Shown here: piece by piece, positions 147 through 8,431 of the stretch | How the letters are laid out: each line of letters begins with the position of its first letter | How positions within the stretch are numbered: position 1 is the first letter of the stretch | Assembly (NCBI GenBank): GCA_964539475.1 | Contig: CAZIIR010000001.1 | Coordinates: 2,869-66,868 of the forward strand | Source of the DNA: an uncultured Candidatus Saccharibacteria bacterium | Lineage (GTDB): Bacteria; Patescibacteriota; Minisyncoccia; Phycocordibacterales; XYD1-FULL-46-19 | DNA length: 64,000 nt | Direction: 5' to 3' | Made by a program: the position numbers and the translations under genes | Notes under the pieces: generated by a model | Told to the model about the DNA's origin: nothing | The model's input: only the letters and a program-made list of their open reading frames with translations | The model's database searches: none

Positions 147-163
147 TAAAAATATTCACTATC

Positions 164-355
164 ATGAAAAATACAGACCTAGTTAATATTGCACTTGAAC
201 TGCTTGAAGAAGACTGTGACACATGCGAAGGCGTTTGTCATGCTTGTGGAAATACTCAGTATGGTGTTGAGCCTGATGCTGAAAATTATGAATGCGAATC
301 TTGTGGAGAGAATCGCGTATATGGAGCACAGCAAACCTTACTTATGTTAGCATGA
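164..355 (+). CDS. small Cys-rich (zinc-ribbon-like) hypothetical protein
   Basis: ORF track. CxxC...CxxC pattern, ATGA start context and a 4-bp overlap with the next gene. Confidence 0.45.
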   Translation: MKNTDLVNIALELLEEDCDTCEGVCHACGNTQYGVEPDAENYECESCGENRVYGAQQTLLMLA

Positions 356-666
356 ACGAACAAACACTCGAAGCACTTAATAAAAGTATTAGACATTGGC
401 AAGCATACGCTGATGGCAAATGGGAAGAAGAAGGGGTTCCAGGCGTGCATAATTGTGCTCTTTGTCAATTGTTTCATCCTGAATACAATCACTCTGGTGT
501 TCTGTGCAACGGTTGTCCTGTTAGATTAAAAACAAGACTTGGAGTTTGTTGTGACACACCATGGAAAAAAGTTTGCCTTGCAATCAATGGCCATGGTATC
601 GACTCACCTCAATTCATTGAAGCGGCAAAAGAAGAACTTGAATTTCTCAAATCATTACTTCCTTAA
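352..666 (+). CDS. Cys-rich zinc-ribbon small protein, paralog A (start moved to the internal ATG)
   Basis: About 45% identical to the 2443..2751 product. Shared motifs TLEAL, SIRHW, NCALC, CNGCPV and SPxF..AA. Confidence 0.55.
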   Translation: MNEQTLEALNKSIRHWQAYADGKWEEEGVPGVHNCALCQLFHPEYNHSGVLCNGCPVRLKTRLGVCCDTPWKKVCLAINGHGIDSPQFIEAAKEELEFLKSLLP

Positions 667-671
667 CTATC

Positions 672-1046
672 ATGACAATCAAACGACTACAATGGTTAAT
701 TAAAGACAAGTATAATAAATTTGTTAGGTGGTATAATAAACCATCTAAAAGACTAATGGAGATTGGCTACGAAATCAATTCATACTACACTCAAAAACAT
801 ACTGTGGATGGTGTGTGTAATTACGCTAAAGCTCAAGAAGATGTAAGGAATTGTTGTATTACAAATCTTGAACTTAAACTTGGAAAACTTGTTGTTCACA
901 CAAGAAGGCCAGGATTATTTATAGGAAGAAAGGGAGAAAACATCGAAGGTCTTTCCAAATTTCTTAATATTCCAATTCATATTGAAGAGGTTAAGTTTTC
1001 ATGGGAAGATATTATTACGCCACTTGATTGGAGTGACGATTATTAA
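672..1046 (+). CDS. hypothetical protein with a KH-like GxxG loop (possible RNA-binding)
   Basis: The motif LFIGRKGENIEGL resembles the KH-domain IGxxGxxI signature. Confidence 0.4.
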   Translation: MTIKRLQWLIKDKYNKFVRWYNKPSKRLMEIGYEINSYYTQKHTVDGVCNYAKAQEDVRNCCITNLELKLGKLVVHTRRPGLFIGRKGENIEGLSKFLNIPIHIEEVKFSWEDIITPLDWSDDY

Positions 1047-1075
1047 TTGACAATACTACTCCTGTGTAGTATAAT
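1047..1075 (+). promoter_or_regulatory. sigma70-type promoter, perfect consensus TTGACA-N17-TATAAT
   Basis: Exact -35 and -10 hexamers with 17-nt spacing, read directly from the sequence. Confidence 0.55.
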
Positions 1076-1169
1076 AAGACCTTGCTCTAAGTAACTGTGA
1101 TTACTAAATGAGCAATTCACAAAAAACCTTAACTGGAGGATAACAATATGCGTTAGTAATATAAATATT

Positions 1170-1213
1170 AGCCTGTGCTATGTTGGGAGACGTAGCACAG
1201 GCTTCTTATCATT
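1170..1213 (+). terminator. 11-bp stem hairpin with a weak U-tract (terminator or processing hairpin)
   Basis: agcctgtgcta / tagcacaggct inverted repeat, followed by TCTTATCATT. Confidence 0.35.
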
Positions 1214-1325
1214 CAGTTCAATACATAGCATCGAGGAGGCGTTTTCTCTGTTAGAATTTATAAGGATTAGAGGATTACATACCCTTAACGTCAGTGACCT
1301 GGACTATGTATTGAACTGAGTGATG
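1207..1325 (+). promoter_or_regulatory. long-range ~21-bp helix enclosing ~75 nt in the 5' leader of gene 1371..1589. It is a candidate RNase III processing site or structured regulatory RNA
   Basis: cagttcaatacatag at 1214-1228 pairs perfectly with ctatgtattgaactg at 1304-1318, and the helix extends to about 21 bp including G-U pairs. Confidence 0.35.
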
Positions 1326-1370
1326 TGGCGGCGAGTCAATCCGACAATCTTAATTAAAGTATTAACTATC

Positions 1371-5764: not shown

Positions 5765-5765
5765 T

Positions 5766-6014
5766 ATGAAATACATCGTAACAAAAGACGAAAAAGGTAA
5801 AGAGGAAATGTTTACGTTTCCTGATTCAGTCCACCATAATGTTATGGCTGATGCTGTGAGTTACCTAAAAAATCAAACCCACGATAATTGGAAAAGAATA
5901 AACAGAGATGTAGTCTCTGCTGGATTTATTGAAGGAGGTGTCTGTGTTGGTAAGAGTGAATCTCTTGGACTATCATCAAGACCAGAAGACACTGAGTTAT
6001 TTAATTATAATTAA
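5766..6014 (+). CDS. hypothetical protein
   Basis: ORF track. Confidence 0.45.
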   Translation: MKYIVTKDEKGKEEMFTFPDSVHHNVMADAVSYLKNQTHDNWKRINRDVVSAGFIEGGVCVGKSESLGLSSRPEDTELFNYN

Positions 6015-6015
6015 T

Positions 6016-6291
6016 ATGAGCAAGCGAGCAGAAGCAGCTAATAAAATTGTTAATTATCTTACCTCTGAGTTAAATAAGTTCAACGCTCCATACGGAGTGT
6101 TGAGTTCAGAAATTCCAATAGGAAGGGGTAAGATTCGCCAGGTAACATTTGGTATCGCTAGGCATCTTGATGCTACTATTAACATCTACTCCGAAAAGAG
6201 ATTTAAGATTCAAGGACGAGGTGCGCTTGCATCTAAGTATAACGGAGACTTTGAATCTGTTGAACAAGTTATAGAACATTTATCAAAATGA
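6016..6291 (+). CDS. hypothetical protein
   Basis: Internal ATG of ORF 5929..6291. Confidence 0.5.
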   Translation: MSKRAEAANKIVNYLTSELNKFNAPYGVLSSEIPIGRGKIRQVTFGIARHLDATINIYSEKRFKIQGRGALASKYNGDFESVEQVIEHLSK

Positions 6292-6611
6292 ATGATAATA
6301 TAATTATTGGTGAATTTTGTGGATGGACATTTGCTCCAGAATTTAGTGTAAACAGAATTGTTGGTTATCCTCCTGTTGAGTGGACTAAAAATCACGATCC
6401 AGTTATAGGATTAGGTAGTGGTGCTTTATATGAGTTTCCTGATTTTGAAAACGACTATAATGCAATACATTACGCTATAAATAAACTTACTGTTGATCAA
6501 CAGTGTGATATGGTTGTAATTCTTAAGCGTGATATTTTGATGTTTAAGAAAACAACAATTAGTGCAACATGCAAAGAGTTGTGTGAAGCGTTTATTAAAC
6601 TAATACTATGA
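6288..6611 (+). CDS. hypothetical protein
   Basis: ORF track, ATGA overlap. Confidence 0.5.
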   Translation: MNDNIIIGEFCGWTFAPEFSVNRIVGYPPVEWTKNHDPVIGLGSGALYEFPDFENDYNAIHYAINKLTVDQQCDMVVILKRDILMFKKTTISATCKELCEAFIKLIL

Positions 6612-6814
6612 AAGAATACACAATCATTAGGACAACAACCATTCAAGATCAAATTGATGAGGTTAATGATCACATGAAAAGAAACTGGACTCCTGTTGGT
6701 GGTATTTGTTATGTTCAACACGAACGAGGAGAAGAGTTTCATCAGGCTATGACTAGGCCACTAGGAGGATCGGATACGAATCAATCAATCTATGGATTCA
6801 CAGAAGAGTTATAA
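6608..6814 (+). CDS. hypothetical protein
   Basis: ORF track. Confidence 0.45.
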   Translation: MKEYTIIRTTTIQDQIDEVNDHMKRNWTPVGGICYVQHERGEEFHQAMTRPLGGSDTNQSIYGFTEEL

Positions 6815-7239
6815 TGAAATTCTACAACATTAAACAAGAAGATTGGGACAAAGTTATTGACATCGCTCGCCATCTTGGTCGTGAGAATGAGTTAAGACCT
6901 TGTATATACGACGGATATGATGCTGCTGTATGTGAGCGTAAAAAACCAACTGATAGACAGTTCCATATTCTAAATAGCGATCAAAAAGATTTGATTGTTG
7001 TAATGGACATGGAGGATATTAATTACGAGGAACCAATGTTAGTTGGAAGAACATACCTATGTATGTTACATGATAACAAATCATACTACAGAGTGTATGT
7101 TAAGTCTATTTGTGATAATATTATTACGGCTGACTACCAACCATTTGAAGATAAAGAACTAACAAAACCGTTGCATTCTGTTATTAAATCAACAGAATGG
7201 CAGGTCGAATGGATTACAGAGTATAGGGAAATTACTTAA
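6814..7239 (+). CDS. hypothetical protein
   Basis: ORF track. Confidence 0.5.
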   Translation: MKFYNIKQEDWDKVIDIARHLGRENELRPCIYDGYDAAVCERKKPTDRQFHILNSDQKDLIVVMDMEDINYEEPMLVGRTYLCMLHDNKSYYRVYVKSICDNIITADYQPFEDKELTKPLHSVIKSTEWQVEWITEYREIT

Positions 7240-7445
7240 TAAGATTCCCAATGGCACCTAATTTTCGAGCGCCTTGGTTTCCGTCCATCAAACATAGGCT
7301 ACCGTAAACCCTACTGAGTGCCATCTGCTTTCGATTCTTTCGGGTGCTGGTGACGCCTTCTCAGACTAACGCTATACCGGCACCGTCTAACCTTAAAGCC
7401 CTACCTCAGAAGCGATCTGATTAAGTTACAGTAAATATAAATATT
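7240..7445 (+). other. GC-rich ORF-free intergenic region with several short helices. It may be a small structured RNA or a regulatory region
   Basis: The composition shifts here, atggcac/gtgccat and tcaga-agcga-tctga hairpins are present, and there is no ORF. Confidence 0.3.
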
Positions 7446-7913
7446 ATGGAAAATCTAACACTAGAACAAAACAAAGAATGGCTTAAAAGATACCTATATG
7501 GATACTCAGAAGGAGTATTTAAAGATAGGTTTCCTGCAATGATTTTGACTGACCAAGCAAAGATGAAGATGGGACAAGTTCTAATGTATCTATGCTTAAG
7601 GGAGGATTTGATCCAAGGTTTCTTTGAGCGTCTTGATCGTTTACATAGCCGTGATACGACAATGTATCAATCAGCACATGGAACGAGGCATCCTGCTTTT
7701 AATAAAATTACTAAACTTGGAGACGATGGGACGTTGCTTGGATTTAGTTTTATGTGGATGAATCTTGTTCCAAATGAGGTCGATCTAACTGGACTTCGAT
7801 TTGAGAGGTTGGATATTTGGCAAGACCCATACACATACAGTATGAATGGTGGTCTTATCTTTAATGGTGAGATCGGTAAACATGCCACAAATTCTTGGGG
7901 AATACATACATGA
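7446..7913 (+). CDS. hypothetical protein
   Basis: ORF track. Confidence 0.5.
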   Translation: MENLTLEQNKEWLKRYLYGYSEGVFKDRFPAMILTDQAKMKMGQVLMYLCLREDLIQGFFERLDRLHSRDTTMYQSAHGTRHPAFNKITKLGDDGTLLGFSFMWMNLVPNEVDLTGLRFERLDIWQDPYTYSMNGGLIFNGEIGKHATNSWGIHT

Positions 7914-8431
7914 AAAAGACACCATTACTTATTGAGTTTCCTCTTCCGTTGTTCGATGGGTTTTATCATTCTGTTTCTCAGGAAATGGCTGATACTTATG
8001 AGGAAAATTATCCCGACGAAGACCATTCGCAATATCATGAAAAAATAGCAAAAGGATTTCTTTCTTCCTTTAATAAATTAACTAAACAAGAATTTCAGTT
8101 TGTTAGAATTGATTCTCCAAAAGAATATAATTTTAATACTGATAAAATTATTGTAACCGGACGAAAGGAGAGACTAAGAACAATATGGAAAAATGTAAGA
8201 AAACTTCACAAAGATTTTAGTTGTTTTGAAGATGTTCTTCGTGAACAACTAACTCCTTGTGATGGTTTTATTCCATTTTATTCTAACGATCCATTAGACT
8301 GGCTTGCTAAAGATTTTGAAGAGTTTGATCAGAATGAGTTAGGTATTATTGTTGAAGCTTACTGTATGTTTAATGATGTTTACTTTGATGCAATTACCGA
8401 ACAACCAGAATACTACGAATCACTATCATGA
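7910..8431 (+). CDS. hypothetical protein
   Basis: Internal ATG with an ATGA overlap to the upstream stop. Confidence 0.5.
   Translation: MKKTPLLIEFPLPLFDGFYHSVSQEMADTYEENYPDEDHSQYHEKIAKGFLSSFNKLTKQEFQFVRIDSPKEYNFNTDKIIVTGRKERLRTIWKNVRKLHKDFSCFEDVLREQLTPCDGFIPFYSNDPLDWLAKDFEEFDQNELGIIVEAYCMFNDVYFDAITEQPEYYESLS

Follow-up and report, generated by a model that had tools for sequence, protein, structure and literature searches.

The 64-kb stretch of DNA analysed here (the window) belongs to a previously undescribed phage with a genome of ~67 kb (~67.2 kb). Within it the 10-mer ACTATCATGA occurs six times, always on the + strand and never on the - strand, every exact copy lying in the first 8.5 kb. 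The six copies listed in an earlier note on this DNA were found at 158, 666, 1365, 2437, 4607 and 8422, 0-3 nt away from the coordinates given there. Copy 1 (ttcACTATCATGA, 158-167) supplies the ATG (164) of a 63-aa gene (164-355) and follows a gene that stops at 146, 11 nt 5' of the motif, in a context that is identical in the related contig L002. The KH-like 124-aa gene (672-1046) starts within copy 2 (ttaACTATCATGA, 666-675; ATG 672), whose first A is the last base of the TAA stop of gene 352-666, and copy 3 (ttaACTATCATGA, 1365-1374), preceded by ~320 nt of non-coding DNA forming a structured block, carries the start (1371) of a 72-aa gene (1371-1589). Copies 4 (2437-2446; ATG 2443 of a 102-aa gene, 2443-2751) and 6 (8422-8431; ATG 8428) both read aatcACTATCATGAct, and in both the TGA closes the preceding gene (2270-2446 and 7910-8431, respectively), whose product ends in ...SLS. 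Copy 5 (gtgaACTATCATGAct, 4607-4616) opens the HAD_SAK_2 gene (4613-5023), the stop of the preceding gene lying 7 nt 5' of the motif. All six copies were thought to begin genes, and five of them do so, 164, 672, 1371, 2443 and 4613 being independently called gene starts on contig L001, whereas 8428 opens only a 16-codon ORF (8428-8478) overlapping the next gene. The overlap with the upstream stop as ATGA, described as frequent, exists at 2437 and 8422 (2/6) and is missing at the other four sites; since the motif keeps no constant distance from the upstream stop, the idea of a simple stop-start re-initiation signal does not hold.

The close variants mentioned in the earlier note are real and both lie at gene starts. 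A one-mismatch form, AATATCATGA (1588-1597, +), contains the ATG (1594) of a 79-aa gene (1594-1833) and constitutes the right-hand repeat beside the 72-aa cassette; at the orthologous start L002 has ACCATCATGA and L088 has ACTATCATGA. A form shorter by 3 nt, ATCACTATGA (10605-10614, +), provides the ATG at 10611 of gene 10611-11147, and its TGA closes gene 10396-10614. The latter gene begins with AATAAT-ATG, and direct reading of the sequence reveals just inside it, on the + strand, a decayed copy, ACTATCACGACTAAATT (10399-10415), identical in 16 of 17 bases to positions 4607-4623 (ACTATCATGACTAAATT). Identity beyond the 10-mer is also evident between copies 2437 and 8422, which have AATCACTATCATGACT in common, and between copies 666 and 1365, which share TTAACTATCATGA; this extended identity within the three pairs (2437/8422, 666/1365 and 4607/10399) points to common descent.

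In 100 dinucleotide-preserving shuffles ACTATCATGA appeared on average 0.15 times, with a maximum of 2, far below the six observed; a position-specific base-frequency model of all 93 gene starts predicted 0.135 copies, and in 3000 simulations of the start model contexts with at least two C/G in the hexamer recurred at most three times each. Of the 27 starts within the first 8.5 kb six carry the motif, against 0/66 elsewhere (Fisher p = 3.9e-4), so that the restriction to a subset of early genes is borne out and the motif constitutes the start of about one fifth of the phage early genes. Counting beyond the window, which had been named as a check, yielded no further copy in the 2.9 kb recovered there (the 2868 nt of L001 that precede window position 1, and the part of L002 that spans the join to the window's end). 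Related metagenomic contigs carry ACTATCATG in 20 distinct contexts, with the start codon inside the motif in each, at least 12 different downstream N-termini representing unrelated gene families, and no fewer than 11 different flanks on the upstream side. An origin by chance, base composition or the phage's generic overlap context might be argued from the fair frequency of TCATGA and ATCATGA at starts (seven gene starts have ATCATGA), and from the ACTATC hexamer alone, whose 13 copies on the + strand are not enriched by a rough estimate against the composition-based expectation. Nevertheless, the shuffles, the start-model simulations and the recurrence of the motif at other genes in relatives refute it, and the generic context is in fact AATAAT-ATG-A, the motif being used by only 6 of the 93 genes; we regard this origin as having practically no probability. 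The motif is specific to this phage lineage: 479,568 nt of unrelated loci with distant HAD homologues contained 0 copies, and an IMG/VR search with a motif-containing 17-mer returned single chance hits only.

Most of the 93 genes have no Shine-Dalgarno (SD) box and use the A-rich AATAAT-ATG-A, the overall start context being SD-poor and A-rich at -3, -6, -8 and -12. This general context matches the SD-independent start context of Flavobacterium johnsoniae (PMC6847099). The motif, which is not SD-like, as had been stated, has A at -6, -3 and +4, positions likewise favoured in the other SD-less genes. Its sites are largely unstructured, share no common RNA secondary structure, and have no antisense partner of the motif within the window. 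By analogy with phage translational repressors such as T4 RegA, or with the role proposed for the start-associated sequences of Cluster K mycobacteriophages, the motif could be a dedicated operator or enhancer, in which ACUAUCAUGA RNA would be bound by a phage or host factor switching the translation of a subset of early genes on or off, recombination at the motif being then a side effect of its repetition. The start codon wrapped by the motif in 20/20 contexts, the presence on the sense strand only and at early genes only, the departure from the generic start context and the mostly unstructured sites, accessible to a single-strand binder, are all consistent with such an operator. There is also a phage protein with a KH motif of the uS3 type: the product of 672-1046, earlier called KH-like, matches the uS3 KH domain (E 2.3e-5) and reaches 21.0 bits against Pfam KH_2, slightly below the 22-bit cut-off; as its own gene bears the motif, it could regulate itself in the manner of regA. 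But this gene is one of the cassettes, and it was not found in what is sequenced of the L088- and L090-type relatives, each of which retains four motif copies. A scan of 30 early and early-middle products revealed neither a RegA- or RegB-like protein nor any other annotated RNA regulator. Moreover, one copy (8428) heads a 16-codon remnant ORF, the relative L093 keeps the hexamer intact with ATG changed to ATA, and the identity in the flanks outside the 10-mer suggests copying rather than convergence. We consider the operator, which the earlier note had put forward, unlikely; none of the computed results shows the binding of a repressor or a function in re-initiation.

The same distribution (sense strand, early genes, initiation regions, single-stranded sites) would suit the recognition site of a sequence-specific endoribonuclease, RegB-like or a host toxin, by which early mRNAs would be inactivated or matured at their initiation regions. 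The location of the motif is the extent of its specific support, and no candidate was found among the early proteins, the sole nuclease being a free-standing HNH DNA endonuclease (9379-10194); this reading is very improbable. At the DNA level, a short asymmetric repeat at gene boundaries in one orientation recalls the stoperators of mycobacteriophage L5, an analogy already made in the paper on start-associated sequences (PMC3203893), and the motif could be the site of an asymmetric DNA-binding regulator blocking early transcription. A transcription roadblock does not need an invariant start codon at a fixed position, no repressor-like gene was identified, and the genome is apparently of the lytic type, with no integrase found among the scanned proteins; this is slightly less probable still than the endoribonuclease.

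Somewhat more can be said for a promoter or initiation site of a phage RNA polymerase, with transcription starting from, or next to, the A of the ATG to give leaderless mRNAs. The core ACTAT resembles T7/SP6-type initiation regions. It also resembles ACTATAG, the core of a candidate early-promoter element, AATTTATTACTATAGAMAACAGGAGAAC, that is repeated shortly before the window begins: counted from window position 1, the two copies lie at about -1374 and -767, both of them preceding a gene. L090 carries this element fused to the motif (...GGAGAACTATCATGT). Site 1365 is preceded by the structured non-coding block with a terminator-like hairpin, and a 3316-aa ORF lies among the presumed virion genes; in N4-like phages the virion RNA polymerase gene is likewise found among the virion genes. 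However, no RNA-polymerase similarity was detected in this giant ORF or in any other large ORF, the motif sites show no conservation upstream of -8, and several copies lie within the gene before them, at its 3' end. Taking TATCAT as a -10 box yields no consistent -35 box and places the transcription start inside the gene. A promoter is therefore improbable in our judgement.

The comparison with relatives revealed what happens on either side of the motif. A shared upstream flank leads to different downstream genes in three cases: window 666 and L088 8691, window 1365 and L088 9439, and window 8422 and L005. Thus, in L088 and L090 the homology with the window stops at 675 and the downstream gene begins MKWFKH..., and in L005 it stops exactly at 8431, followed by a different gene (MKPKTIIKL...). 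Conversely, the KH-like gene is shared with L003 behind different upstream flanks, another gene preceding it there and the homology beginning at 664, and the HAD gene is shared with L005, L006 and L007, in which it follows a different 67-aa gene and the homology runs from 4604. In L002 a 105-aa gene is inserted with homology edges at 1589/1591. The 72-aa gene is absent from L088 exactly between two motif copies, copy 3 (1365) being joined there directly to the gene that starts at window 1594: the window reads ...GTATTAACTATCATGAAC/ACAAAC... (72-aa gene) ...GCTTTAATATCATGAAC/GCACACC, and L088 reads ...GTATTAACTATCATGAAC/GCACACC. As read from these alignments, at least one deletion or insertion of a cassette can be traced to two copies recombining inside the 10 bases that they share, TATCATGAAC. 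The same relatives also show cassette indels outside the motif, at ATGAAA (1892/2185), at GAAT (4143/4290) and at ATGACTAAA in L007. By our own count, 6 of ~14 junction events are at motif sites, which represent 7 of ~27 early starts, so the motif is only about 2-fold over-represented among junctions and is not the sole crossover point.

The hexamer at -6 to -1 of the motif is well kept among the relatives: 2/48 columns vary, compared with 89/480 in the coding sequence next to it (p = 0.0085) and 25/96 in the corresponding hexamers of non-motif genes (p = 0.0012), the latter comparison being also in favour of an operator. At 2437 it is invariant across four lineages (the window, L088, L098 and L099) while 17/60 downstream columns vary, and at 4607 it is again invariant across four lineages with 19/60 downstream columns variable. 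Purifying selection on a putative binding site would produce such conservation as well, and the relatives, at 75-99% nucleotide identity, are too close for recombination and purifying selection to be separated as its cause.

We propose, with about an even chance of being right, that mobile early-gene cassettes share the motif as a conserved stop/start linker, which serves both as an initiation context and as a crossover point for gene exchange. The fuller form of the motif is T-[A/C]-ACTATC-ATG-A, and as a linker it would mark the 5' edge of early-gene cassettes that are small and dispensable. In the RNA it would simply be the initiation region of the cassette genes together with the TGA or TAA closing the preceding gene, and in the DNA the repeated linker would offer a common crossover point for short-homology recombination, so that cassettes bearing it could be inserted, deleted or exchanged in register with an intact stop-start junction every time. 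Such exchange would propagate the linker sequence and keep its copies uniform, the linker being an expression signal that doubles as a recombination site, and the over-representation would be explained without the need of an operator. Ten to 12 bases offer very little length for homologous recombination, and the search for a recombinase identified none, a weak Holliday-junction-resolvase match being the only hint. Furthermore, an origin by recombination alone does not explain the preference for a hexamer with two C over the AATAAT consensus.

Among known systems, the T4 RegA operators and RegB sites are short sequences in the initiation regions of some early mRNAs, through which the genes concerned are silenced once the early phase is over. 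RegA sites are AU-rich and only loosely conserved, RegB cuts GGAG in SD boxes, and both require the cognate phage protein, whereas the motif described here is an exactly conserved non-SD word. The proposed linker is closer to the promoter-early stem-loop (PeSL) cassettes of T4-type phages (Arbiol et al. 2010, PMC2839356; Comeau et al. 2014, PMC4122927), in which a short repeated expression signal borders early ORFs that are small, non-essential and part of a hyperplastic region, and close relatives differ by insertions, deletions and replacements that arise when its copies recombine. PeSLs, however, are sigma-70-like promoters with terminator stem-loops acting on transcription, while the motif is far shorter, with only 10-12 nt, has no promoter or hairpin features, and includes the start codon. 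The start-associated sequences (SAS) of Cluster K mycobacteriophages (Pope et al. 2011, PMC3203893) are likewise asymmetric and conserved, in one orientation at the mostly ATG starts of a subset of non-structural genes from unrelated families, absent outside their lineage and suspected of a role in translation initiation. They differ in being a 13-mer, GGGATAGGAGCCC, that includes the SD core and is placed 3-7 bp before the start, with 17-bp inverted repeats at about half of the copies; the motif has neither SD nor inverted repeats, includes the start codon and usually the preceding stop, and its role at recombination junctions is directly visible in relatives. Finally, the conserved boundary ('linker') sequences of lambdoid phages (Susskind & Botstein 1978; Clark et al. 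2001, both as cited in PMC3029335) are short sequences at module junctions at which homologous recombination can reassort the flanking genes. The present phage lineage is a clear case of this, with many combinations. To our knowledge, lambdoid boundary sequences are not one single repeated word; here one 10-12-mer, fused to the start codon, occupies at least six junctions per genome.

The relatives of this phage evidently swap, gain and lose early genes at the motif, which indicates that the motif is a real start-linked junction signal. The comparison thus identifies it as an exchange point of early-gene cassettes, a result beyond the reach of the reading of a single sequence.

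The exact motif, ACTATCATGA, in which the hexamer ACTATC is fused to a start codon and a following A, occurs at positions 158, 666, 1365, 2437, 4607 and 8422. All six copies lie on the plus strand of the 64 kb window, with none on the minus strand, and all are at starts within the first 8.5 kb, an early clustering with a Fisher p of 3.9e-4. The earlier note had described at least six such copies and judged them over-represented, and both claims are borne out. Shuffles preserving dinucleotide composition gave an expectation of 0.15 copies and a maximum of 2; chance is excluded as the source of the motif. 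The close variants that it placed near 1586 and 10606 were located at 1588 (AATATCATGA, one mismatch) and 10605 (ATCACTATGA, 3 nt shorter), in both cases at a real gene start. The starts at 164, 672, 1371, 1594, 2443 and 4613 coincide with gene calls stored with public contigs of the same sequence; the ORF beginning at the ATG at 8428 is just 16 codons long. The window spans nearly all of a phage genome, 67,206 bp in the public record, and has genes on the plus strand from 1 to 26.7 kb and on the minus strand from 27 to 63 kb. The count was extended beyond the window with two related metagenomic contigs, L001 (2868 nt upstream of position 1) and L002, which bridges to the window end; neither adds a copy and therefore there are six genome-wide.

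The motif was compared with the start context of the phage genes by compiling 93 gene starts, 92 of which were scanned for Shine-Dalgarno (SD) sequences. Matches of 5 nt or more were found at only about 8 of them, and the remaining starts are A-rich, with peaks at -3, -6, -8 and -12, a T at -1 and an A at +4; the consensus start hexamer is AATAAT (n=6). ACTATC retains the favoured A at -6 and -3 and adds two C residues, which are rare at those positions. It lacks a purine-rich core, 5-10 nt ahead of the start codon, with which the CCUCC anti-SD could pair, in agreement with the earlier view that the motif is not SD-like. Nor is it the generic start context of the phage, an explanation that the earlier note had named as fatal to its proposal: a model with position-specific start frequencies expects 0.135 copies, and in 3000 simulations contexts with at least two C/G in the hexamer recur at most 3 times. 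The A-rich profile is as described for Bacteroidia, and Flavobacterium johnsoniae uses an SD-independent, Kozak-like start context (PMC6847099), to which the SD-poor, A-rich starts of this phage bear a likeness that is a weak hint on the host. The ResIII-type helicase (15640-17010) offers another weak hint, its closest phage homologues being Cellulophaga and Flavobacterium phage helicases at 30% identity. Two scans of genome contigs for a host, one using the GroES-like protein and the other a tRNA arm, gave no match.

Exact and homology look-ups in a large metagenome collection provided 18 related contigs with 75-99% nucleotide identity. Among GenBank phages, megablast and tblastn gave no match to the early region, to the putative capsid protein or to the 715-aa protein. 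The HAD and UvrD proteins had no match among IMG/VR proteins, and searching IMG/VR for a 17-mer returned single chance matches only, in unrelated contigs. A scan of JGI metagenomes with a HAD alignment was dominated by distant HAD_SAK_2 homologues, none above 36% identity, and did not pick up the close relatives; the 480 kb of unrelated loci around these matches, used as a negative control, contain no copy of the motif.

In the window and the related contigs ACTATCATG is found in 20 distinct contexts, heading genes with at least 12 unrelated N-termini downstream and preceded by at least 11 differing upstream flanks. The same flank can lead into different genes: ...attacttccttaACTATCATGA is followed by the KH-like gene (672-1046) in the window and by a 143- or 274-aa gene in the contigs L088 and L090, ...aaagtattaACTATCATGA by a 72-aa gene in the window and by an MNAHLE gene in L088, and ...cgaatcACTATCATGA by the 16-codon ORF in the window and by a different gene in L005. 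Conversely, the KH-like gene retains the motif behind an unrelated upstream gene in L003, as does the HAD gene (4613-5023) in L005-L007. BLAST homology blocks begin or end at the motif, with edges at 664, 675, 4604, 8431 and 1589/1591. The clearest event concerns the 72-aa gene (1371-1589), which is flanked in the window by TTAACTATCATGAAC and TTAATATCATGAAC: L088 is an exact hybrid of the window copies at 1365 and 1588 with no gene between them and with the crossover within TATCATGAAC, the cassette having been gained or lost between two motif copies. Identity extends beyond the 10-mer at sites 2437 and 8422 (16 nt shared) and at sites 666 and 1365 (13 nt shared), and a decayed copy inside gene 10396-10614 matches the HAD start at 16 of 17 bases; such shared sequence looks like copying rather than independent convergence.

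The motif behaves as a junction in these genomes, and we infer that this behaviour accounts for its over-representation, its role in RNA being presumably only that of an ordinary SD-less initiation region. Our preferred reading, to which we give about an even chance, is that the motif represents a conserved stop/start linker of mobile early-gene cassettes. According to this proposal the cassette genes would use the motif as their initiation context and, because it is repeated, it would also serve as an in-register crossover point for cassette exchange; exchange at the motif would in turn spread it and keep its copies uniform. By our count, motif sites make up 7 of about 27 early starts and account for 6 of about 14 junction events, a roughly twofold excess on few events.

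Other rearrangements were observed in the same contigs. Close relatives also differ by further single-gene indels, whose ends are marked by short direct repeats including the start codon: ATGAAA at 1892/2185, GAAT at 4143/4290 and ATGACTAAA at 1102/1302 of L007. The contigs L097 and L002 have an end only a few bases away from a motif copy, which would be expected of a sample in which several junction variants are present together. In L005 and L098 (JGI 3300020030 and 3300020041) the block homologous to window positions ~5200-8431 is inverted and adjoins ~2315 or ~3720, so that the early genes would diverge from a central region; the arrangement is either genuine for that lineage or the product of a chimeric assembly. 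L088 also carries on its minus strand (2506-3060) an additional PF04447 gene, for a dATP/dGTP diphosphohydrolase, absent from the window.

Conservation was analysed at orthologous starts located through protein homology. Variable columns amount to 2 of 48 in the motif hexamer against 89 of 480 in the first 60 coding bases (p = 0.0085), and to 25 of 96 in the hexamers of non-motif genes from the same relatives (motif versus non-motif, p = 0.0012). The motif is kept where other upstream hexamers get replaced. Its upkeep reflects either selection on function or exchange between copies of the same word, and the relatives are too close to separate the two.

The earlier note had proposed a translational operator or a re-initiation signal. 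As regards the latter, the overlap with the upstream stop that it described holds at two sites, where the TGA lies within the motif, and the other four differ: one has an abutting TAA, in two the stop precedes the motif by 7 and 11 nt, and one has no upstream stop. The placement varies among sites and therefore a strict stop-start signal is unlikely. Around the motif sites we detected no common fold, hairpin or sequestration, and accessibility is like that of other early starts. A search of the window for an antisense partner (pattern TYRTGRTRGT) yielded only the opposite strand of the motif copies and a few coding sites.

The operator reading, in which the motif would be a dedicated translational operator or enhancer by analogy with the targets of T4 RegA or with the start-associated sequences (SAS) of Cluster K mycobacteriophages, we regard as unlikely. 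As RegA targets do, the motif overlaps the start codon of several early mRNAs; no RegA homologue was found among the 30 early and early-middle products scanned. None of these 30 products matched a translational repressor or regulator PHROG, most of them being ORFans, for which sensitivity is limited, and Pfam searches on 10 of them added no regulator. The plus-strand 672-1046 product, which had been called KH-like from the sequence, does possess a genuine KH signature (...HTRRPGLFIGRKGENIEGL...) scoring just under the Pfam KH_2 threshold, and its C-terminal half aligns to the KH domain of uS3 (E 2.3e-5, best with Pseudomonas uS3). Its AlphaFold2 single-sequence model has a mean pLDDT of 39.5, and a collection of 5.8 billion proteins returned only the protein itself. 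This small phage ORFan may mimic a domain of a ribosomal protein. The KH-like gene, itself a cassette, was not found in the sequenced, partial contigs of the L088- and L090-type relatives that keep the motif, which weakens the link between the two. It is quite doubtful that a phage-encoded factor, possibly the KH-like protein, reads ACUAUCAUGA in early mRNAs and, as part of a phage-specific, SD-independent control of translation, turns a movable group of early genes on or off; if it did, any cassette acquiring the linker by recombination would join the same regulatory circuit.

The motif might instead be a promoter yielding leaderless mRNAs, considering that a repeated element upstream of the window, AATTTATTACTATAGAMAACAGGAGAAC, has the ACTAT core in common with it; against this, no sequence upstream of -8 is conserved at the motif sites, there is no consistent -35 box and no polymerase was found, making such a promoter very improbable. 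In the search for a phage RNA polymerase, Pfam, PHROG, NCBIfam and PDB returned no match of any kind for the 3316-aa ORF or for the other large ORFs; no terminator was detected at the motif sites. A sigma-70 promoter with TATCAT as the -10 box was rejected: a weak -35-like hexamer is present at 3 of the 6 window sites and not across the 17 distinct contexts, and transcription would begin within the gene. A nuclease site is more improbable again, and a stoperator-like DNA site slightly more so; promoter, nuclease and stoperator readings are all less likely than an operator or enhancer. The 3316-aa ORF itself (27018-36968, minus strand) has presumed virion genes around it; like it, almost every large ORF of the phage is unannotatable, with no relative in GenBank phages or IMG/VR. 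The ~27-nt element AATTTATTACTATAGAMAACAGGAGAAC occurs at ~1494-1520 and ~2101-2130 of L001, which correspond to ~-1374 and ~-767 when counted from window position 1, and an ATG follows it after 2-4 nt. It stands where the early region opens, with 1.4 kb of non-coding DNA preceding it. It is a candidate early promoter plus strong SD, with an ACTATAG core reminiscent of T7/SP6-type initiation regions, and in L090 it is found fused to the ACTATCATG motif.

The early region contains four non-coding blocks (1076-1364, 2752-3755, 7240-7445 and 9100-9378) in which G+C is partly higher, reaching 51% versus 37% for the genome. Compared with shuffles, folding is far more stable for 1076-1364 (z = -5.4) and 9100-9378 (z = -4.0) and not better for 7240-7445 (z = -0.3); the first block shows 94.5% identity in L088, with 81-88% in the flanking genes. 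Long hairpins with the common base TCAGTTCA...TGAACTGAG recur at ~1207-1325 and ~3556-3665. These blocks and hairpins are probably phage non-coding RNAs. Apart from one weak tRNA-like match, Rfam recognised no family in the blocks or around the motif; that match corresponds to a plus-strand element at 3659-3738, at the end of the 1-kb block. This element shows a 7-bp acceptor-like stem (GAGCGTG/CACGCTC) and a T-arm (GGCGAG-TTCGATT-CTCGCC) and matches tRNA-Sec weakly (29.6 bits, E 0.012) with no ARAGORN call; the relative L005 carries two such T-arm motifs at the equivalent place. A perfect plus-strand sigma-70 consensus, TTGACA-17-TATAAT, is located at 1047-1075, directly after the KH-like gene and before the structured block, and is conserved in relatives with TATAAT, TATCAT or TATGAT as the -10 box; since its spacer also forms a perfect 7-bp hairpin (ATACTAC-tcctgt-GTAGTAT), either a host-type or a hairpin-type promoter is possible. 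The plus-strand segment 9075-9225, just upstream of a free-standing HNH endonuclease gene (9379-10194; PHROG HNH families, E 2e-8), is a candidate small RNA gene, with a promoter-like TTGCAT...TATAGT and, ~100 nt later, a strong terminator hairpin GACCGAGCTTGAG...CTCAAGCTCGGTC plus T-run at ~9178-9225. The near-palindromic 12-mer AATATAAATATT has four early-region copies at or inside non-coding blocks (1158, 2750-2761 on the minus strand, 7434 and 9322) and four other window copies within genes. The Cys-rich paralogues 352-666 and 2443-2751 (both plus strand) have ~68% nucleotide identity over ~110 nt; only the second carries the motif, the start of the first being TTAGC-ATG-A, which overlaps the stop of the gene before it. 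Farther along, a MazG-like pyrophosphatase and a nucleotide kinase are encoded side by side on the plus strand (14338-15277), and a plus-strand tRNA with anticodon CAT (17932-18008) has the A1:C72 mismatch atop the acceptor stem and is without the three G-C pairs of the initiator anticodon stem; it may be an initiator, an elongator or a tRNA-Ile2.

Among known systems, the motif is a member of none of the promoter-early stem-loops (PeSLs) of T4-type phages, the boundary sequences of lambdoid phages or SAS; by analogy, it works most like PeSLs, also like the boundary sequences, and looks most like SAS. PeSLs are regulatory cassettes mediating modular shuffling (PMC2839356) and, like them, the motif is repeated at the boundaries of small, non-essential ORFs, where recombination between its copies gives indels and replacements that set close relatives apart; a PeSL, however, combines a strong sigma-70-like early promoter with a terminator stem-loop, and the motif sites have neither. 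For lambdoid phages conserved boundary sequences have been proposed in work cited in PMC3029335. The likeness lies in the same short motif standing at junctions with differing flanking modules (20 contexts; edges 664, 675, 4604 and 8431) and in the crossover inside it, as in the L088 hybrid of copies 1365 and 1588. SAS have the consensus GGGATAGGAGCCC with an SD core AGGAG, 3-7 bp upstream of the start, and a 17-bp imperfect inverted repeat, the ESAS, lies upstream of roughly half of them (PMC3203893). The motif resembles them in being asymmetric, in one orientation, at the starts of a gene subset of different families (at least 12 N-termini) in the non-structural part of the genome, and in its conservation among relatives. 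It differs from them in having neither the SD core nor the 13-mer consensus and in abutting and including the start codon, and its sites share no upstream sequence, hairpin or extended inverted repeats.

Short conserved linkers between exchangeable modules are a prediction of the modular theory of phage evolution, of which this lineage is a compact and unusually clear case: one word of 10-12 bases, fused to the start codon, heads at least 12 unrelated early genes and is demonstrably the site at which genes are swapped, gained or lost. Two questions become testable now, namely whether 10-12 bases of homology suffice for in-register cassette exchange in a phage and whether a start-linked word in an SD-poor genome holds translational information as well. 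The motif is also usable in metagenomes as a marker of hypervariable early-gene cassettes in this uncultivated, otherwise unannotatable phage group.
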